The notes below the pieces were generated by a model that did not search any database, had not been told where the DNA came from, and was given only the letters and a program-made list of their open reading frames with translations. From IMG/VR virus record IMGVR_UViG_3300046467_003049: a stretch of 55,438 nt of DNA. One strand, given 5' to 3'. The stretch comes from an uncultured virus (IMG/VR IMGVR_UViG_3300046467_003049) (taxonomy: Duplodnaviria; Heunggongvirae; Uroviricota; Caudoviricetes). A program made the translations under genes and the position numbers. Each line of letters opens with the position of its first letter. Position 1 is the stretch's first letter. Of this stretch, positions 6,447 to 49,592 are shown in pieces.

Positions 6447-7993
6447 GTGAACTACTACGGCCATAAATGACCGAGCTTCAAAATCAAGCAGCTTTAGCCG
6501 CTTGATTTATCTTTTTTGACGTTTCATTAGTAGCTGCCTGTTCGCTATGCTTGCAGGTCTTACGTTTACTTCCGCGCCCATTACCTAAACGAAGCACACC
6601 CCGTTTAGACAACTCCGTTCCAGAGTCTAGTATTAAATTAATTGCTCTTTTTACTATGACACGAGCGGCGTTTCTATCCGCATTATCAGCATGTTCACAA
6701 CTAATGCAAACGAACTCACTTTGAGAGCGTCTATTGGCTGAGTGAGTGTGACCGCAATTAGCGCACTCCTGACTTGTGTATGCTGCATTGACTTTAAATA
6801 CACCCTTTGCTTCACGTTTAGCTTTGTACTTAATGTATGATTCCAGTAGGTGCCAACCATTAGCTAAAATGGCTTTATTTAATCCTGATTTTTGTGCGGC
6901 GTTATTAGATATAAATTTACCGTTTTGATTTTGCTTAGCTTTTGCTTTCTTTGTCATGCTAGCGGTTTTTAGATCCTCAAATACAAATACCTGAAAACCA
7001 GAGTTAACAAGCTCGTGACTCGTTTTGTGGCAAAAATCTTTTCTTATACTGGCACACTTTGCATGATGTTTTGCAATGCCGTTTTTAGTTTTATTTCTAC
7101 GTTTCGAGCCTTTGGTTTGCTTTGATAACCTGCGCTGTAATCGCTTAATGTATCGTTGTGATTTAGTGGTTGATTGTTTTTGCTCTTTAGTGAAGTCAAA
7201 CGCCTTATAACCTGCATGAACAGGGACGGCCACACCACGATCTAGACCAACTGTCTTAGTCGTTAATGACTCTTTTGCTTCACCTTGAAGGTATTTTAAG
7301 TGCGCTTTATCATCGAGTAATTGTCTTTCATCAAAGCCGTCATCGTAGCAAAACGAAACGCTATATAGACCGCGCTCTTTCTTGATGTAGATTGATTTTG
7401 GCTCACTGAAATGTCGATGAGATTTAAACGACAAATAACCAATATTGTTCGTTTTAGTGCCTATAAACAGCCGTGTTACACCATCGCTACAGCACTCAAA
7501 ATTAAAGACCTCACTGGTTAGATGAATAGAGCCACGGTCTGATTTAGGTTTGAATTTTGGCTTACCACACTCGCCTTTCATGAATTTTTGATAGGTCTGA
7601 TACCAGTTTACTGCGCTATTTCTAATGATTTGACTAGGGCAGTCGTACAACCAAGGGCTTAGCTCTTTTGACTTAAATTGTGCTGCTTTTTGATCTACGG
7701 GTGCATAAGTGCCGATAGGACAGTATTTACGGGCAAAGGCAGTGTGATATTTTTCTTCACCACACTTGGCATTCCAAATGAATTTGGCGCAACCCATCCA
7801 CTGAGAAAGGCTTTCTTTTTGTTTATCGGTTGGTGTAGCTTTTAACTTAATACCTAATAACATGTTAGCCCTCCTTATTTGAATGGTTGATGTGCCTGTT
7901 TAACAATACTATCATCCTGCGCTGTATTTTTTTGTAGTGTGATTTTATTTGCTAACTCGCCCGTAAACTAACGAGATTGCGCTCACTGTTTTG
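6447..7993 (-). mobile_element. IS200/IS605-family element carrying only tnpB (IS1341-like)
   Basis: Right end GAAGCTCGGTCATTTATGGCCGTAGTAGTTCAC ending 6447; putative left end TTGAA|CAAAAC followed by a subterminal hairpin; no intact tnpA. Confidence 0.7.
6484..7863 (-). CDS. tnpB: RNA-guided endonuclease TnpB
   Basis: N-terminal HTH-like region, RuvC motifs GLDRG / FEDL / NADRNAA, YTSQEC and CANC...CISC zinc ribbon. Confidence 0.95.
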   Translation of the reverse strand: MLLGIKLKATPTDKQKESLSQWMGCAKFIWNAKCGEEKYHTAFARKYCPIGTYAPVDQKAAQFKSKELSPWLYDCPSQIIRNSAVNWYQTYQKFMKGECGKPKFKPKSDRGSIHLTSEVFNFECCSDGVTRLFIGTKTNNIGYLSFKSHRHFSEPKSIYIKKERGLYSVSFCYDDGFDERQLLDDKAHLKYLQGEAKESLTTKTVGLDRGVAVPVHAGYKAFDFTKEQKQSTTKSQRYIKRLQRRLSKQTKGSKRRNKTKNGIAKHHAKCASIRKDFCHKTSHELVNSGFQVFVFEDLKTASMTKKAKAKQNQNGKFISNNAAQKSGLNKAILANGWHLLESYIKYKAKREAKGVFKVNAAYTSQECANCGHTHSANRRSQSEFVCISCEHADNADRNAARVIVKRAINLILDSGTELSKRGVLRLGNGRGSKRKTCKHSEQAATNETSKKINQAAKAA

Positions 7994-10027: not shown

Positions 10028-10669
10028 CTACAGATTTTTCTTCTTACGTCTGGATAAACCAAAACACATCAAGCCGGCTGCAAGCACAGCTAATGATGTA
10101 GGCTCTGGTACAGAAGTAGATGCCGAAACACTTTCACCTGATACCAGAAATACGCCCATGGTGTCAGCAAAATAGTTTTTGTCCGAGACGCCACCAACAT
10201 TAAAATCCATATAGTTAGCATTAAATAGATTGTACTTGACGGTCGTTCTATAAGCAAAACCATCATCGCCATTTAAATACTGACCAAAACTGTAAACATT
10301 GCTTCTGTCCCGATAAGTTTCACCAAACAAGCTCGCAAACTCTAAAGCCGGCTCATCAGCTATCTCCAATCGAGTATTACCTACATTAGATAGCCCATCA
10401 AACCCAAAGAAGTCACTATAAAGTCGGTTAACCTCCTCAATACTTGGCATTCTCCAACCGGCAAACTCACCTCTTTCGAGTGCTCGCTCAACGTTACCAA
10501 TAGACATACCTATGGTTTGGTTAAGATTAAGCCACTCAATACCAGTTTCTTCGTGCAGCACTGCCTGATTATCGCCAGTAGTCTGGTAGTCAGTAAGCAC
10601 AAACCCCGCATTAGCGCTTAAGCTAAAAAACAGCAGTGGCACAACTGTTAAAAACACTTTTTTAAACAT
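10028..10669 (-). CDS. PEP-CTERM sorting domain protein
   Basis: Signal peptide; LHEETGIEWL, GWRMPS; VPEPTSLAVLAAGLMCFGLSRRKKK. Confidence 0.9.
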   Translation of the reverse strand: MFKKVFLTVVPLLFFSLSANAGFVLTDYQTTGDNQAVLHEETGIEWLNLNQTIGMSIGNVERALERGEFAGWRMPSIEEVNRLYSDFFGFDGLSNVGNTRLEIADEPALEFASLFGETYRDRSNVYSFGQYLNGDDGFAYRTTVKYNLFNANYMDFNVGGVSDKNYFADTMGVFLVSGESVSASTSVPEPTSLAVLAAGLMCFGLSRRKKKNL

Positions 10670-10724
10670 TATCAACTCCCTTTGCAAAATGTAAATCCAA
10701 ACACACCTTAACACATCAGCCTAT

Positions 10725-11450
10725 TTACACATCAATCTTACCGACAGGACTCTCGCCTTTAGACTTTCTTCTTGAAAAAGCAAAACCCATCAGACCGGCA
10801 GATAAAATAGCTAGCGAGGCAGGCTCAGGCACGGTCACGTTATTTACCGGTGCATTCGCATTATTAGCGTTCAATGTAGGATCGTTCAGTGATGAATACG
10901 TCGCACCACCATCAGAAACAAGATAAACCCCATATCCCGAATCCGAATATGACGTTGTCGCATTGAAACTCTGATTATAATTCACCGTACTTTGCCTGTA
11001 TGCAGCCGCATACACATACGTGCGATAGGCTACACCCTCATCAACCCCCAAGTGAAGGCCGCGTGAAAAAGTGCCGTTTGCATTTTCGAACGCATAGCCA
11101 AACAGTTCATTGTAAGCAGTAGCAACATCGCGCGAAAGATTGCGAACACTCCCTGCATCTCTAGATAGCTCATTTTGTAACCCAAAGTACTCCGACTCCA
11201 TCGTATACATGTCATCAAGAGTCGGTAGTCTCCACCCGCTAAATTGACCGTCTAGCTGAGCAACAACATCATCAATACTCATTCCCGCAGTTTGAGTGAT
11301 ATTCAGCCACTCAATACCTGTCTCCTCATGCAATACTACTTGATTGTCACCCTCAACTTTGTAGTCAGATAAAACAAAGGCAGCATTAGCTCCCAAGCTT
11401 AATGCTAGCAAAGACATACCCATCGCCATTTTTATTAGTTTCACACACAA
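10725..11450 (-). CDS. PEP-CTERM sorting domain protein
   Basis: Signal peptide; LHEETGIEWL, GWRLPT; VPEPASLAILSAGLMGFAFSRRK. Confidence 0.9.
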   Translation of the reverse strand: MCVKLIKMAMGMSLLALSLGANAAFVLSDYKVEGDNQVVLHEETGIEWLNITQTAGMSIDDVVAQLDGQFSGWRLPTLDDMYTMESEYFGLQNELSRDAGSVRNLSRDVATAYNELFGYAFENANGTFSRGLHLGVDEGVAYRTYVYAAAYRQSTVNYNQSFNATTSYSDSGYGVYLVSDGGATYSSLNDPTLNANNANAPVNNVTVPEPASLAILSAGLMGFAFSRRKSKGESPVGKIDV

Positions 11451-12273: not shown

Positions 12274-13059
12274 CTAAGCTCTGCGTCTCTTTAGCGATAT
12301 CAGCCACTTCATTCTTGTCAGCATCACAAAGCAACTTATCAAAAACCCCTTCTTTTACATCTAAATTTACCAGCACACGCTCGATTGTTTCTTTAGCCTT
12401 GTTGTTGCTTTCAATAACAAGGCGTTTAAGTGCTTTTGTCATTTTAGCCAATGCATCAGCAATTATATCTTCAGCATTTTCATTGAATTTGACAGTAGTA
12501 GAATCAATCGTGTCTAAATATCTTTTTTTCTTAGTTGCTTCTGAGCGTAAACCTGTAAACTTAATCTCAGTCTTCGCTCTCGCAACATAAACAGTTGGTT
12601 TTCTACTATCCCAACCGTCAGTAATACCTGATAACTGATCAGAGCCGCATGTAAAACGTTTATCAATAGAGATCTCAATACCCATCGCATCAATCAAGCT
12701 ATCAATCACATCTTGCTTTAACGTCAACGCTTTACCCACGCTAACACAAGATACGTATTTTAAATTTGCATCTAGTTCATTGGTGAGGTCTTTAGCATCC
12801 ACGTCATCTAAAGTGATATCGCGAAGTAATGTTATAATATTGTGGCTTACAGCTTCTTCAACGGAAAATAAGTTCATGTGTGCGATCTCTTTTGGTGTTT
12901 GTTTTTCAGTATGTATATATTATCACAATGAACCATAGTGTCAATCATTTGTTTTCATAATAGACAAAAAATCAACCGGCATGTCTGGTGATGTATTCCA
13001 CCACCAGACGCAAGCAACTAAACAATCAAGGCAATTAAACACTACCTCAGGAAAGTGTA

Positions 13060-13219
13060 CTTAGATTAAGTTTGCAACCGGATTCTAACCGATGTTTCTA
13101 CAGTGAAGCGCGTCCTATCATGTTAGACGAGATAGATCATAAGACCTATTTATCGGATTGAATGCCGACATTTCGCTGTCGTAGTGTCCTAACGCTAGAC
13201 GACACAAACTTAATCTAAG
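13060..13219 (-). ncRNA. double tRNA-like (dumbbell) RNA, copy A
   Basis: Order D1-T1-closed acceptor-D2-T2, closed by a 15-bp IR; cross-paired anticodon stems; own promoter ~13265-13297; no ORF down to ~12965. Confidence 0.7.
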
Positions 13220-13292
13220 CCCACTTACCAAATTCTTTCATGGTAAGTGGTGTTTTAATATGCAATAAATATTATCATAATGAAACCTTGTG

Positions 13293-13754
13293 TCAATCTT
13301 TACTGTTCGTTTTTTTCATTATTTTACTGGATTGCAACAAAGCCGCTGACGACGAGGACAAAAGCGAATTTGTATGCTCTCTCAATGGTACGTCGTATTT
13401 AAATCTATGCACATTAGTGATGATTTCTATCATTGCATTACCGGCAGTTAAAGAAGGCTCTACTCTTGGTAAGTTAAGGTTTTCAAATGCATCTAAAGAG
13501 ATCTCAGAAGCACGGTCATCCATCAGTGAACGCGCCAACAACAAACTCGTTGAACCTACACCAGGCTGACCAATAACGGGGACAGGTAAATGCTTTATAC
13601 GAGATAACGTACCACCCACCAATCGTTCATTTTTATACCTTTCAATACGCAGGCTTTCTTGAGTCGCCAACAGCTCTTCTCGCACTAATGCAAGTTCTCT
13701 GTTCACTTCATCAAATTCAGCCAACGACACCATACGTTCTGCTCTATTTACCAT
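13293..13754 (-). CDS. hypothetical protein, N-terminal coiled coil
   Basis: 153-aa ORF overlapping upstream ORF. Confidence 0.6.
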   Translation of the reverse strand: MVNRAERMVSLAEFDEVNRELALVREELLATQESLRIERYKNERLVGGTLSRIKHLPVPVIGQPGVGSTSLLLARSLMDDRASEISLDAFENLNLPRVEPSLTAGNAMIEIITNVHRFKYDVPLREHTNSLLSSSSAALLQSSKIMKKTNSKD

Positions 13755-16145: not shown

Positions 16146-16288
16146 GTGGTCGATTCCTTTATGAATTTGCTCGATAACTTATACACTCATTATAGTCGGA
16201 CTTCCTGCGAGTTGCAAGCAGTTTATTTAGCTATTAACGCTTAAATTTTAAATACGAAAAACCACCCCGCAGGAAAACAACAACCTTA

Positions 16289-16636: not shown

Positions 16637-16662
16637 TGTATAGATCCTTATATTGAATAGAG

Positions 16663-16799
16663 TACCTGCACCTGGATTCGAACCAGAGTTTGTCTCTTGC
16701 TTCGCATTGACCGCTATGCTACATAAACATAATGCTTACGACCGGACTCGAACCGATGTGTGAGCCTTAGATTGTCTTAGTCCACTAGACGAGATAGGC
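16663..16799 (-). ncRNA. double tRNA-like (dumbbell) RNA, copy B
   Basis: Two canonical T-arms (GGTTCGAGTCC, GGTTCGAATCC), two D-arms, inner closed acceptor CGTAAGCA-TTA-TGTTTATG, no anticodon loops. Confidence 0.7.
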
Positions 16800-16905
16800 T
16801 TTAAAAACTGTTTACTTTCTTTGCCTATGTAAAAGGCTCGATTCATTAACTTATGTAACTACTATAGTCGGACTTCCTAAAAATTGCAAGCGCTTTATCA
16901 CTTAT

Positions 16906-17208
16906 TTAACGCATACTCATTTGACTTTGATTCTGACTGTCTCTACGAGCAAATAAAGCATCTTTATTACTAACTACAACATACTGCTTACCTAATTTCT
17001 CCATTAAAGCCTTAGACACTGTCTCAAATGATGTAACAATACGCGTATACTCCATCACCCAGTAATCACCAACCTTTTCTGAAGTATTAAAACGAAAGCC
17101 GTGAGCTTGCATCAAGTTAACTTCTTTAGATAATGCAGTACGAACTTTTCTGTTGCCCGTAAACTGAATTGTTTGAGTTGAAAATCTACGACCAATAATA
17201 TTATTCAT
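16906..17208 (-). CDS. hypothetical protein
   Basis: 100-aa ORF, TCATWATGA promoter, CACACAAGG leader. Confidence 0.75.
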   Translation of the reverse strand: MNNIIGRRFSTQTIQFTGNRKVRTALSKEVNLMQAHGFRFNTSEKVGDYWVMEYTRIVTSFETVSKALMEKLGKQYVVVSNKDALFARRDSQNQSQMSMR

Positions 17209-17533
17209 GATCTAAAACCTTGTGTGCGTGTTCCGACTTGATGAACTTATTGTACTTCATTATGATAATTTGTCAATCATTTATATTTATTTTCAACACA
17301 ATAAAACCTAAACAATTAAGATTATAATTCAGTCGTAATCAAGTGATTTTATCCACCTGTCTTTTTATCATCCCCATGGCGTTTTTGACATGCACCCGAC
17401 ATTTCACAACTCAACTATTTCCCACACGGGCACTTTGGAGTAATTGAGTATTATAAAAAAAGTGCTTGCATTTTGTTGGACGTCCTACTATAATGGTTGC
17501 ATAAATTAATGAATTAACCGCAAAGGAAATCAC

Positions 17534-17968
17534 ATGAGAGTAGTTACAGCCAAAGAAGGTAAAACGCTTAGAGACTTCGCTAAATCAGTAGAAAATAACA
17601 ACCTTATTGCCATCTTCCCTGAACATGGCTTGTCTCCAAACGAGCAAGCAGCTTGGTTAAAGGAAAACGAAGGGAGATTCATCTCAGTTATTACTTTTTC
17701 ACCATTCATTGTAAGTGATGCTCAAGACCTACACGTAATGGATAGTGATGTAAATATTGACATGGGATCTTCGGTTAACAAGGTAACGCTTGTACTGTGG
17801 AGGAGTGAGACCATTGGAGACGTTGCTAAAGATAAACTTAAACAGTTAAGAGATAAAAGCGAAAAAGCCAACAAAGAAGATCTACAGGCTATCATTGATG
17901 AAGCATACGAACTCGGGGATAGCGTAGAACGAGTTTTGTTTATCAAGACAATAATGGACAAGCAATAA
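17534..17968 (+). CDS. hypothetical protein
   Basis: Starts directly after repeat copy 1. Confidence 0.8.
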   Translation: MRVVTAKEGKTLRDFAKSVENNNLIAIFPEHGLSPNEQAAWLKENEGRFISVITFSPFIVSDAQDLHVMDSDVNIDMGSSVNKVTLVLWRSETIGDVAKDKLKQLRDKSEKANKEDLQAIIDEAYELGDSVERVLFIKTIMDKQ

Positions 17969-18547: not shown

Positions 18548-18722
18548 TTTACACTATTAGCACTCTTCATTTAGAGTGCTTTTTTGCCATTATCCCAATA
18601 GTCATTTCCCACACGGGCACTTTGGAGTAATTGAGTATTATAAAAAAAGTGCTTGCATTTTGTTGGACGTCCTACTATAATGGTTGCATAAATTAATGAA
18701 TTAACCGCAAAGGAAATCACTA

Positions 18723-19931: not shown

Positions 19932-20390
19932 TTAATCTTCTACACCAAAAAGGTAATGTGCCACCTGACCTTTTTTAAGCTCCTCCGCCTCAACAGTTTC
20001 ATTGCCATTCACACCCATCGTAAGAATTCTCGATGTATGAACATCATCTATACCATCTAAGCAAGTGTAAGCGTGCTTAAAGCCAAAAGACTTATAGAAC
20101 TCCAATGTACAGCCACTAACCCCATCAATAGCAACCAAACGAATTTGAGTCACACTTTCTGGAAGTGAATCAATCCAGTTTTTAAGCATAGATGTACCGA
20201 AACCATTACCTCTTAATGATGCCGGTGTAAAAATCTGCTCTAAATAAGCAACACTTTCTATCACATCACTTTCAATATAAGGAAACGGCTTAAAAATATC
20301 TTCGTAACCCTCTTCAGACAATGGCGCTTTTACTTCATTAAGCTCAGCTATTTTCTTACTGTCTTTTTCGCTTAAAAATTCAATTATCAT
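19932..20390 (-). CDS. GNAT family N-acetyltransferase
   Basis: LRGNGFGTSML acetyl-CoA motif and FYKSFGF motif. Confidence 0.8.
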   Translation of the reverse strand: MIIEFLSEKDSKKIAELNEVKAPLSEEGYEDIFKPFPYIESDVIESVAYLEQIFTPASLRGNGFGTSMLKNWIDSLPESVTQIRLVAIDGVSGCTLEFYKSFGFKHAYTCLDGIDDVHTSRILTMGVNGNETVEAEELKKGQVAHYLFGVED

Positions 20391-26105: not shown

Positions 26106-26734
26106 AAAAAAGGGCTATCACAGCAAGCCATTAACCTTTCGTGTTCATGGCAAAGTTGAATTCCTTTTTTGTCCTTTGGTTTGAGAGAGTATTGATGGAC
26201 ATATATAATTCCATCAATACGGAGTTATGGCTGATAGATAACAACAGTGTGTTCTTCGCCCTTAAGCTCCTCGCTTATTATTGTTGATATGACATCCCAA
26301 TCTCCTCCTGCCAATCCTGCCCCAATTAGAGGATATCCAATCCTTTTGCCAGAAAAGTTTTGTTTTATGAGTTTCATAACATTTCTGATTGCATCGTAAT
26401 CAGCGTTACGACCTTTGCCAGCCCAATGATATTGAGTATAAGCATTAACAATGGTGAAATTTCCCGTATCAGCCTTGCTGTATGTACCGAGCTTATTTTT
26501 TTCACCCTTAGCTGTTTCTAAGTCGGCTTTATACGCCTCTGGAAACTTGTTTTTAATTGTTAAAGCAATCCCTTTTCCCATTTGGCAAAAGCAGTTACAG
26601 CCGTGAATTATTACGTCAAAATTTCCATCTTCTGCAAACTGCAAAAGATCGCCTTTTAATGTTTTCATTTTATAATTGTTCCTCTAAAAATATGCACACG
26701 AAAGTTTAATGGCTTGCTGTGATAGCCCTTTTTT
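26106..26734. repeat. 43-bp inverted repeat (26106-26148 / 26692-26734) enclosing the macro-domain gene
   Basis: AAAAAAGGGCTATCACAGCAAGCCATTAACCTTTCGTGTTCAT, 2 mismatches between arms. Confidence 0.9.
26225..26668 (-). CDS. macro domain (ADP-ribose binding/hydrolase) protein
   Basis: GDL...IIHGCNCFCQMGKGIA and YPLIGAGLAGGDW motifs. Confidence 0.9.
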   Translation of the reverse strand: MKTLKGDLLQFAEDGNFDVIIHGCNCFCQMGKGIALTIKNKFPEAYKADLETAKGEKNKLGTYSKADTGNFTIVNAYTQYHWAGKGRNADYDAIRNVMKLIKQNFSGKRIGYPLIGAGLAGGDWDVISTIISEELKGEEHTVVIYQP

Positions 26735-34172: not shown

Positions 34173-34682
34173 CTATTCAGCAAGCAGCTTTCTCGCTTCA
34201 CACAATTTTTCGAACAATGCTTGAGATTCTTCATCACAAACATCAATCCCATCAATAATTTTATTTAATAAAGCAGCTGATGTTTCAGCTTTGCCTCCAA
34301 CAATCAATTTGTACACTTCGTGTAATTTTTCGAACAATGCTTGAGATTCTTCATCACAAACATCAATCCCATTAAGAGCTTCATTCAACAAGGGAATTGA
34401 CGCTTTAGTTTTATTTTGAACTAACATTATATCAGCAAGCAGCTTTCTCGCTTCACACAATTTTTCGAACAATGCTTGAGATTCTTCATCACAAACATCA
34501 ATCCCATCAATAACTTTATTTAATAAAGCAGCTGATGTTTCAGCTTTGCCTCCAACAATCAATTTGTACACTTCGTGTAATTTTTCGAACAATGCTTGAG
34601 ATTCTTCATCACAAACATCAATCCCATTAAGAGTTTCATTCAACAAGGCAATTGACGATTTAGTTTTGTTTTGTTCTAACAT
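34173..34682 (-). CDS. repeat protein with 4x GIDVCDEESQALFEKL
   Basis: Near-perfect ~250-bp tandem duplication, each half containing two repeats. Confidence 0.8.
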   Translation of the reverse strand: MLEQNKTKSSIALLNETLNGIDVCDEESQALFEKLHEVYKLIVGGKAETSAALLNKVIDGIDVCDEESQALFEKLCEARKLLADIMLVQNKTKASIPLLNEALNGIDVCDEESQALFEKLHEVYKLIVGGKAETSAALLNKIIDGIDVCDEESQALFEKLCEARKLLAE

Positions 34683-34759
34683 TATATGCTCGCTTGTGTG
34701 TGTTGTTTCAGTAACTTAATATTATCATAATGAAACTATACGTCAATCTTTTATTTCTA

Positions 34760-35419
34760 TTAAGCGGCTATTTCACCCTTTTCTTTTTCAAGGGAATTTA
34801 ACAAGTGATCTATCACATTATACACCGCATACTCACACACTTCCTCAGCGCTTTCAGCACCAACAATATCTGCCAAGCTATGCGTATAGCCATAAGTCGC
34901 TGTAAGCTCCGTTAGCTGGCGTACAACATCATTTTCACCCTCTTCTATGATGTTATATGAGGTGTACTCATTAATCACTATATCGTCCATTGTTAAATCA
35001 TAACGACTCACAATATCTTCAACGTTCTTAAATATACCGCAAGCATCAACAAAGTAATCTTGACCTGATACATTGACTTTTATAAACCCATGCGCAGATA
35101 CGCCAACATTGCTAAGTATCACATGCATATAGCTAACCTTTAAGCTATCTTCGAAACAAACTAATGCATACAAAAGGTGCTCTGCAATCGCGTAACAGTC
35201 AGCCTGGGCATACTGCTTTGTAATTAGTTCATTTACAGGGAATAACAACGAGTCGCCTTGCATTGCTTTAATTGCATCAAGTAGCTTTTTCGATATTACT
35301 CTATCGTCATGCATCATTTGCTCCCAATCAGTCGTAGGGAACATTAAATTACATAGCGATAATGGCATTTTGTGATCTGCTGATAACTGCTCTTGTACAT
35401 TGGCTGATAAAGATGGCAT
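34760..35419 (-). CDS. hypothetical protein
   Basis: GAGG SD; DCYAIA...H...DACG pattern suggestive of a Cys-His-Asp site (weak). Confidence 0.75.
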   Translation of the reverse strand: MPSLSANVQEQLSADHKMPLSLCNLMFPTTDWEQMMHDDRVISKKLLDAIKAMQGDSLLFPVNELITKQYAQADCYAIAEHLLYALVCFEDSLKVSYMHVILSNVGVSAHGFIKVNVSGQDYFVDACGIFKNVEDIVSRYDLTMDDIVINEYTSYNIIEEGENDVVRQLTELTATYGYTHSLADIVGAESAEEVCEYAVYNVIDHLLNSLEKEKGEIAA

Positions 35420-42296: not shown

Positions 42297-42671
42297 TTAA
42301 ACAGTATCTTTGATAACCCACTCAAGCGATGCTCTTCCGATAGGCTTTATATCTTCAATCATGGCTGTGAAACAACCGCTTTGATAAAAGTTAATTTTGC
42401 GCTCGTTATCGTCAACACTCACACAATACACTCTATGACCTTCAGGGTATGTGTCATGCTTACCGTGACCACCTCCCCCTCCTTCGGTTTTTGTTTTTAC
42501 AACAACATATTTACCTTTAAAGTAAGAGAAGTCACCACCCACAACAATGTTAGTGTTCGTTAGCTTAGATGATCCTTTCTTGCTGCTATAAACTAGATGC
42601 TCAAGCACTGAAGCATACACCTCATGACCTTCTTTCAATTCAATAACATCGTCTTTTTTTAAAAAATTCAT
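42297..42671 (-). CDS. hypothetical protein
   Basis: CGTGTACACG promoter; AAGGA SD. Confidence 0.75.
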   Translation of the reverse strand: MNFLKKDDVIELKEGHEVYASVLEHLVYSSKKGSSKLTNTNIVVGGDFSYFKGKYVVVKTKTEGGGGGHGKHDTYPEGHRVYCVSVDDNERKINFYQSGCFTAMIEDIKPIGRASLEWVIKDTV

Positions 42672-42888
42672 CACAGCACTTCCTTCTTTTCGAATATACA
42701 CTTATTATACTCGTGTACACGATGCCAAGCAAGCTTTATTTAACGAACATTGAGAATATAACCTCACGAATAAGCAGGGAACTTTTTGCAATCACTTGTT
42801 TTTTTATAGGCAAAATAAACCTTAGCTGATTCAAATAGCTTATTTACACAGTCGTTTTGTTACAATGCTTATTAAACTTCACACTATT

Positions 42889-49382: not shown

Positions 49383-49592
49383 CTAAGCACAAGCCAAAGT
49401 AACACTCGTTGCTTGCAAGCCCTTTTCACCGTTGTCGAACTCAAATTCAACCTTTTGGCCGGCGCTAAGTGTCTTGAAACCATCAATTGGGATCACAGAG
49501 TAATGCACGAACACATCATCCTCTTTTCCATCCTCATTAATAAAACCGAAACCCTTTGCGCTATTAAACCACTTTACTGTTCCAACTGCCAT
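49383..49592 (-). CDS. cold-shock domain protein (CspA family, CspD-like residues)
   Basis: [15 protein letters not shown] (RNP1), VFVHYS (RNP2), DGFKTL..GQ.VEF. Confidence 0.95.

Follow-up and report, generated by a model that had tools for sequence, protein, structure and literature searches.

A dumbbell of two cross-wired tRNA bodies in a marine mobile element: an apparently undescribed RNA architecture and a possible decoy for tRNA-targeting defence enzymes

Can two tRNA bodies be wired into one another within a single RNA, and what use would a mobile element have for a tRNA-like molecule without an anticodon? These questions are raised by a locus on the minus strand of a 55,438-nt stretch of DNA (the window) from an uncultured virus (IMG/VR record IMGVR_UViG_3300046467_003049), for which an earlier note had proposed a dumbbell-shaped RNA in which a circularly permuted second tRNA replaces the anticodon loop of the first (copy A). 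Parsing of the sequence recovered every part that had been named (Table 1). Both 4-bp helices through which the two halves cross-pair are complete (8/8 pairs), the anticodon loop is absent, CCA is not encoded, and the outer acceptor extends into a perfect 15-bp inverted repeat (13219-13060), which becomes a closing helix of 18 bp when G-U pairs are included. The two connector strands form these 4-bp helices around an internal loop. Two refinements were made: the inner acceptor hairpin lies 1-2 nt off the tRNA register, and the T1 loop has 8 nt. The D-stem is of the Glu/Asp/Gln type, and the same stem was seen on such tRNAs here; positions in the copies and their relatives follow the tRNA numbering.

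Table 1. Coordinates of the dumbbell loci and other features in the window
Feature	Position	Strand	Remarks or basis
Sigma-70-like promoter, repeat family preceding many genes of the element	13269..13296	minus	10/12, extended -10; putative function
5' hairpin, 10-bp stem, ahead of the dumbbell	13221..13250	minus	predicted
Copy A with 18-bp closing helix (7-bp acceptor + 11-bp extension)	13059..13220	minus	folding
Copy A dumbbell	13209-13070	minus	two tRNA bodies joined via connector helix
Outer acceptor stem, 5' strand	13203..13209	minus	pairs with 13076-13070, 7/7
D arm 1 (D1; Glu/Asp/Gln-type stem; G15, G18, U19)	13186..13200	minus	elbow with T arm 2
Connector strand 1, 11 nt, replaces anticodon arm	13174..13184	minus	pairing, covariation
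T arm 1 (T1; 8-nt loop, U56)	13152..13169	minus	elbow with D arm 2
Inner loop-closed acceptor-like hairpin, 7 bp	13132..13149	minus	matching helix covaries in family
D arm 2 (D2; A15, G18, A19)	13112..13128	minus	sequence parse
Connector strand 2, 13 nt	13098..13110	minus	pairing with strand 1
T arm 2 (T2; A56 replacing C56)	13077..13093	minus	strict T-arm scan
Small downstream hairpin	13028..13048	minus	predicted only
11-bp hairpin, then T run about 11 nt later	12966..13009	minus	folding; candidate transcript end
Copy B	16664..16799	minus	same architecture as A; 56% identical to A
Promoter-like site, second repeated family (D17), upstream of copy B	16861..16889	minus	read by eye
IS605/TnpB-type gene	6484-7863
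Macro-domain gene	26225-26668
GNAT-like gene	19932-20390
Cold-shock gene	49383-49592

The architecture is found twice in the window and again in unrelated contigs of viral and metagenome origin. When viral sequences were scanned for a Glu-type D arm with a T loop too close behind it, 109 stretches with 84 distinct matches were obtained, comprising 40 single tRNA bodies with a shortened anticodon arm, 34 matches with a T stem and no acceptor of their own, and 10 that look like chance. Further pattern scans returned 3, 5, 2, 26 and 5 viral stretches and 38 metagenome stretches. In GTDB, 8 stretches were retrieved and 0/8 had the dumbbell fold; since the pattern used for GTDB and the metagenomes would miss A and B, this blank covers only pattern-matching members. 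The search patterns required a Glu-type D-stem, so the dominance of that stem among the relatives is partly selected. A parser yielded 18 distinct two-elbow matches; 16 of these, counting A and B, are dumbbells. Between pairs of 14 representatives, identity was 46-83% (median 57%).

Three forms could be distinguished. Form I, to which A and B belong, combines an outer acceptor with an inner one that is closed by a loop. In form II the inner acceptor is absent and a link of 3-4 nt leads from T1 to the second U8 (L183, L172, L186, L081 and L037; L207 by the parser; L205 and L001 by eye). In form III the ends lie inside the connector, and the two acceptors are either closed by a loop or missing (7 records, a count that left out the mis-parsed L183 and L186); its pairing of 56/56 is given no weight, as these records had been chosen for cross pairing. 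Read from their sequences, forms I and III are related by circular permutation: the same circle is opened at different points. The form III dumbbell L010 recurs letter for letter, without annotation, within the tRNA array of the cultured Sphingobium phage Lacusarx (record 67,077-67,237), which also carries two ordinary tRNA-Glu genes. Two dumbbell-like units stand back to back in a 210-kb phage record that encodes RtcB (L086/L120).

How are the four arms of copy A wired? We consider it very probable that D1 with T2 and D2 with T1 each form a tRNA elbow, the D-stems being joined by the connector, which is made up of two helices of 3-4 bp that flank a small internal loop. This cross-wired double elbow, as the earlier note had it, drew support from covariation in the family and from compensation of tertiary pairs within copy A. 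Because the sequence sets were chosen by a score that includes cross pairing, the cleanest evidence comes from the tertiary contacts of copy A, which entered no search score. D1 has U at position 19 and G at position 15, and D2 has A at both; T2 has A at position 56 and is preceded by C at position 48, and T1 has U at position 56 and is preceded by U at position 48. Cross wiring gives all four pairs (U19-A56, A19-U56, G15-C48 and A15-U48) and self wiring 0/4, with the 8-nt T1 loop numbered from its 3' end, an assignment of our own. In L164, cross wiring likewise satisfies 2/2 of the 15-48 pairs and self wiring 0/2; the other 12 sequences do not discriminate between the wirings by tertiary pairs.

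The cross-paired stems do covary. Applied to a MAFFT alignment of 10 form-I sequences, RNAalifold recovered the full dumbbell unaided, with compensatory changes at 27 of its 38 pairs, and in each connector helix 3/4 pairs were compensated. When the dumbbell structure was assumed, 93.1% of 390 cells were paired, a value reached in 0/500 shuffles, and slid controls gave 30-51%; the alignment contains one close pair (L002, L167) and the shuffle ignores relatedness. With a fixed register in 14 sequences, cross pairing reached 92/112 and self pairing 68/112, and permuted partners gave 59.5 +/- 4.7 of 112, with 0/20000 reaching the cross-pairing count; the outer acceptor formed 91/98 pairs against a permuted mean of 47. 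These counts omit L007 and L077 (two separate bodies or a poor parse) and the near-duplicates L017 and L167, and they lean upward since the descriptor rewards cross pairing. The descriptor itself found no match in 60/60 shuffled windows, where A and B score 40.7 and 43.0. A model built from 8 sequences without A or B recognised B with 72 bits (E 2.4e-14) and A with 68 bits (E 1.7e-13), and the best unrelated match had 11 bits.

These results bear on two readings in which the locus would be derived from ordinary tRNAs. In the first, copy A would be two decayed tandem tRNA-Glu genes whose halves cross-pair by chance. Both D arms of A do resemble those of tRNA-Glu, and Rfam gave sub-threshold tRNA matches of 24 and 20 bits in the two halves of B. 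Against this, neither half of A has an acceptor of its own (3/7 pairs each), folding as two separate bodies costs +7.8 kcal/mol as against -32.7 kcal/mol, the tertiary pairs compensate across the halves, and the layout recurs at 46-83% identity. This candidate was rejected, being contradicted by the cross pairing, the covariation, the RNAalifold fold and the tertiary compensation, and we regard it as the least probable of all the explanations considered. Scarcely more probable is a precursor that would be cut in the connector and re-ligated in the manner of RtcB, giving one working tRNA and an excised permuted tRNA. A UUC triplet in strand 2 of copy A stands in a context like that of a tRNA-Glu loop, and RtcB is encoded in 3/24 related records and is adjacent in L192. 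However, the two connector strands total 22-26 nt where two anticodon arms would need 34, the triplet is not kept in B or in the relatives, copy A would lack U33, and the acceptor identity elements are not conserved.

Secondary-structure energies by themselves do not favour the connector in the folding models. The dumbbell of copy A lies 0.1-0.6 kcal/mol from the minimum energy, with a competitor that pairs the 5' strand of D1 with connector strand 1, and the outer cross pair is present in 47/315 near-optimal structures. Connector pair probabilities were 0.08 and 0.17 in A and 0.0 in B, and exceeded 0.2 in only 1/14 sequences; the dumbbell of copy B lies 9.3 kcal/mol above the minimum-energy fold of B. 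Folding energies leave out tertiary contacts and Mg2+. In that minimum-energy fold, the leader of copy B (window 16850-16793) can pair with the outer acceptor strand and connector strand 1, and B may therefore be a switch or partly decayed.

The two copies differ in detail. Copy B has a canonical inner acceptor of 7-8 bp and a weak outer one (5/7 pairs), the reverse of the situation in A, and its D2 is that of another tRNA type. A strict T-arm scan of the window gave four hits, T2 of A, both T arms of B and one stray. Since model R1 includes A and B, a search with it shows only that the window holds no third copy. Contigs of a 2017 marine run, which was not flagged as a possible source of the window, cover 13070-13285 and 16662-17145 with no listed difference, and as both copies are matched in a separate run, an assembly artefact is not the explanation.

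Copy A had been described as an ORF-free transcript with its own promoter and extra hairpins. The own strand of the unit indeed lacks any ATG-started stretch of more than 17 aa, and hairpins are predicted on both sides of the dumbbell. As to the promoter, a sigma-70-like site is present, but a single site by itself is near chance: the scan found 3 such sites against a shuffle mean of 1.9. The site is a member of the repeated promoter family D1, which has 19 copies in the window. The hairpin at 12966..13009 and the T run that follows it are a possible end of the transcript, as judged by folding; it was not called as a terminator by the terminator/promoter scan. Folding z-scores were -4.9 for the copy A region and -5.8 for the 306-nt unit. 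The one RNA run (5% of words) gave a single 149-nt contig at 13310-13458, outside the copy A gene, and is uninformative either way.

The layout of the units bears on a further reading, in which the dumbbell would be a processing signal, a tRNA-shaped mark that directs cuts by RNase P, RNase E or RNase III in a longer transcript. Such a role would suit copy B, which is followed after 28 nt by a 115-aa ORF of the same unit, and the many relatives that sit inside tRNA operons. Copy A, on the other hand, is alone in a unit that contains no ORF, and the next promoter beyond it stands at 12944; moreover, one elbow would suffice as a mark, and form III has no open acceptor end. We think this reading improbable.

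What the family keeps is largely the tRNA body. U8, A14, the 15-48 pair, the contacts between 18/19 and 55/56, A58 and a 4-nt variable region are retained, as are the D-stems and a connector of 11-13 nt per strand; D2 of copy B and D1 of L205 depart from the Glu type, with compensation. Not kept are the acceptor sequence, the inner acceptor (form II), the open ends (form III) or any anticodon, and the acceptor ends of the dumbbell are, on the sequence comparison, dispensable. No base pair is fixed at positions 1-3 of the outer acceptors, and 2/15 relatives and copies encode CCA (neither A nor B does), which makes charging by one synthetase unlikely. A long closing helix beyond the acceptor recurs (11 bp in A, 14 bp in L084, 15 bp in L081) and may serve as an RNase III site. 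The internal loop of the connector is symmetric, with GAC on both strands, in the form II members L183, L172, L186, L037 and L001; L205 has AAC on both strands and copy B has AAG on both.

The retained bases U8, A14, 15-48, 18/19-55/56 and A58 are features that housekeeping enzymes read. They would thus suit an RNA that soaks up or regulates tRNA-handling factors (modification enzymes, RNase P, the CCA-adding enzyme, or the elbow contacts of the stringent response or the ribosome), reshaping host translation rather than blocking defence. The known YrlA RNA, a substrate for modification by TruB and DusA and for cleavage by RNase P (PMC4201824, available sections), offers a parallel for such contacts. 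Copy A, however, replaces the near-universal G19-C56 pair in both elbows, which base-reading enzymes may not tolerate, and we judge this possibility improbable too, if marginally less so than the processing signal.

Is the dumbbell a known RNA? The search for a strong match to a known family, by Rfam and ARAGORN, gave none. ARAGORN found 0 tRNA genes in the window, Rfam found nothing in it at gathering level, and around copy A only two chance-level, non-tRNA Rfam matches were seen. By blastn, the copy A region had no match in plasmids or in 50,697 phage records, nor had three other dumbbells against phages; two further dumbbells gave short tRNA-piece matches only, and none of the 8 inspected was a dumbbell. 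The elbow contacts and 15-48 pair of a tRNA (Rfam RF00005) are present by sequence in both bodies of A, as compensated pairs. The 5-bp anticodon arm and 7-nt loop of a tRNA are absent, as the 11- and 13-nt connector strands pair across the halves, and no anticodon triplet expected of a pre-tRNA is common to the 16 dumbbells, in all of which the connector has 22-26 nt.

The RNA class YrlA (Rfam RF02553) had been named as a precedent. The link holds for the inner module and not beyond it. The inner half of A and B is a permuted module of T arm, loop-closed acceptor and D arm, with 15-48 compensation, as in YrlA, and the YrlA module also occurs in phages according to the available sections of PMC4201824. 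There the module is described on a Ro60-binding stem with a GNCGAAN0-1G motif, with a Ro60 gene within about 4 kb (PMC4201824); in the dumbbell, a second tRNA body takes the place of this stem. The motif occurred 0 times in the A and B units and near 1/16 dumbbells, in the flank, and the Rfam scans gave no match to the YrlA model. With the motif, a nearby Ro60 gene and an Rfam match all missing, the dumbbell is not a Y RNA.

In red algae and some archaea, circularly permuted tRNA genes place the 3' half before the 5' half around a loop-closed acceptor, and their transcripts are spliced at the anticodon loop into decoding tRNAs. The dumbbell differs in having too few nucleotides for such splicing and no conserved anticodon. 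The stable RNAs of T4 (rnaC, rnaD) and T5 (RNA1, RNA2, RNA3) resemble it as non-decoding, partly tRNA-shaped RNAs in phage tRNA regions, but none has two D and two T arms in cross-wired arrangement (rnaC has one T arm, rnaD none, RNA1 one). Descriptor matches in the T4 and T5 regions were neighbouring ordinary tRNAs or weak parses only, and identity with these RNAs was rejected on architecture and sequence. T5 RNA2 (L114:8960-9084) has a tRNA body with a second T arm in place of the anticodon loop, and is possibly a reduced or analogous form of the dumbbell. Allo-tRNAs and polycistronic irregular tRNAs occur in clusters that their authors link to mobile elements or toxin-antitoxin systems (PMC5389517); those described there are single cloverleaves with anticodons, unlike the dumbbell, and the word 'dimer' is absent from the available text of that paper. 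GOLLD and ROOL were also rejected, as there was no Rfam match and the available part of bioRxiv 2024.12.08.627333 contains no such domain.

In the literature searched (titles and abstract starts, with few subscription papers, and parts of PMC5648845 and PMC13092985), no two-bodied tRNA mimic is described. Six dumbbell contig identifiers were absent from 3/6 supplementary files of PMC10690425, and the family could be among the anonymous RNA candidates of that paper. The parts are known, namely the tRNA elbow and the YrlA module, and their assembly was not found in the sources searched. The sequences define a real, selected and apparently undescribed RNA architecture. Dumbbell genes escape ARAGORN and Rfam in the window and are unannotated in Lacusarx.

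The genomic context offered few partners. The window is a marine element with many small genes and repeated promoters; Pfam identified three PEP-CTERM genes, an IS605-type gene, a macro domain and a cold-shock protein, and structural or replication genes were found neither among its 99 ORFs (Pfam) nor among 61 (PHROGs). The genes flanking copy A had only near-identical, unnamed homologues and no related viral or plasmid locus, and those downstream of A and B had no usable Atlas match. Five marine megaplasmids with a related macro-domain gene carried only ordinary tRNAs (ARAGORN, four of the matched loci), and the promoter motif was absent from four of the five. The related set comprised 24 viral records, 17 with dumbbells and 7 with single bodies, 8 of them at least 90% complete. 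In it, TROVE occurred in one record (about 8.5 kb from the dumbbell), RtcB in three and YqeY in seven. Among the flanking ORFs of the relatives (67 of 81 scanned), YqeY appeared three times and RtcB, Pth2 and a cyclic-phosphate receiver domain once each. Dumbbells often lie beside tRNA genes in the viral and metagenome contigs, and no partner gene was common to all dumbbell loci.

Y RNA tethers Ro60 to PNPase, and YqeY domains bind the tRNA elbow. By the same principle, the two elbows of the dumbbell might serve as a scaffold that holds two elbow-binding proteins, of the host or encoded by the element (for example, YqeY-domain proteins), at a fixed distance. The connector varies only between 11 and 13 nt, and its internal loop is frequently symmetric, which suggests that geometry matters beyond hiding the anticodon, and in four related records a YqeY gene lies within 0.5 kb of the dumbbell. 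Yet those four cases appear to be one lineage (the two proteins compared are 62% identical), YqeY is present in only 7/24 records and 2/8 near-complete ones, TROVE is present in 1/24, and neither domain is found among the 99 ORFs of the window. A scaffold is unlikely on this evidence, although we rank it second, after a decoy.

We favour a two-site, loop-less decoy for host tRNA-targeting defence enzymes, a proposal built on sequence comparison to which we give somewhat less than an even chance. The family keeps the tRNA body, drops the features for decoding and charging and is found only on mobile elements, and from this we infer an RNA that competes for proteins that bind the tRNA body. On this view a phage or plasmid carries a non-coding RNA gene, and the RNA made from it has two tRNA bodies in near two-fold symmetry. 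Upon entry or infection the gene's own promoter would drive transcription, a cut in the long closing helix would free the RNA, and the RNA would fold into a rod of roughly two turns with an elbow at each end. Each elbow could then bind host proteins that recognise the D-loop, D-stem and T-loop of the tRNA body, the likeliest targets being tRNA-cutting or tRNA-modifying defence enzymes; as the dumbbell offers no anticodon loop to cut, real tRNAs would be spared.

tRNA-cutting defence enzymes are the best-documented selective pressure, and phage tRNAs counter host tRNA nucleases (PMC11555353). Like the phage tRNAs that act against PARIS, retron-Eco7, PrrC and P2-OLD, the dumbbell is element-encoded and of tRNA type, and would belong to a conflict over host tRNAs, its role here being proposed. 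Those anti-defence tRNAs decode and replace the cut host tRNA (PMC11555353, PMC12409363, PMC12445682), and the rescues published in the available parts of these sources act via replacement, not via decoys. The dumbbell cannot decode, so any protection would have to be competition. Competition from viral tRNAs has been mentioned as a possibility, and an AriB dimer has been modelled as contacting both the D-loop and the anticodon stem (PMC12409363). AriB (PMC12409363) and P2-OLD (PMC12445682) cut in the anticodon stem, however, and the absence of a loop is therefore no guarantee of resistance.

A more specific version of the decoy proposal, in which phages and plasmids possess an undescribed class of non-coding RNA, a two-headed mimic with two-fold symmetry and natural permutations that evolved as an anti-defence factor and traps dimeric tRNA-cutting enzymes, is put forward tentatively, and we would sooner expect it to fail than to hold as a whole. 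Both tRNA-body sites of the enzyme would be filled, and a helix with an internal loop would be presented in place of an anticodon. Among the main targets of bacterial defence against phages are tRNAs, and the RNA-based answer known so far is the supply of replacement tRNAs; an RNA decoy, if real, would be a different counter-strategy. It would also bear on the reasons for which phages retain tRNA-like genes that do not decode, a question that dates back to the stable RNAs of T4 and T5. The permutations found within the family show which parts count, namely the elbows and connector and not the acceptor ends, and the presence of a family member in the cultured phage Lacusarx means that the decoy idea can be tested.

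The 40 single-body matches (for example, L005:394-462, L024, L028 and L093) have a good acceptor and a linker of 15-20 nt as the anticodon arm, and L005 shares the U19-A56 swap of copy A. These matches may be a one-headed form of the dumbbell family. A tRNA body whose anticodon arm is likewise shortened lies just downstream of a YqeY-type gene in Pantoea phage AAS21 (L201:594-664) and also in T5 (L114, about 17434-17580), where it overlaps the 5' end of the annotated 719-nt RNAX.

Several other features of the window were recorded. At least three families of promoter-like repeats with conserved spacers precede many of its small genes (for example, 12897-12959, 13249-13311 and 34699-34761; 16169-16224 and 16841-16896; 42661-42746), and these suggest element-wide regulators. 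Paralogous PEP-CTERM-tagged secreted proteins share a common N-terminal stretch (55-347/2026-2318, 1580-2332, 10028-10714 and 10725-11450). A 255-nt tandem duplication with 97% identity (34177-34686) lies within a 169-aa ORF (34173-34682), and an exact 117-nt promoter-bearing repeat occurs at 17417-17533 and 18604-18720, 1.2 kb apart, with a 69% copy between.
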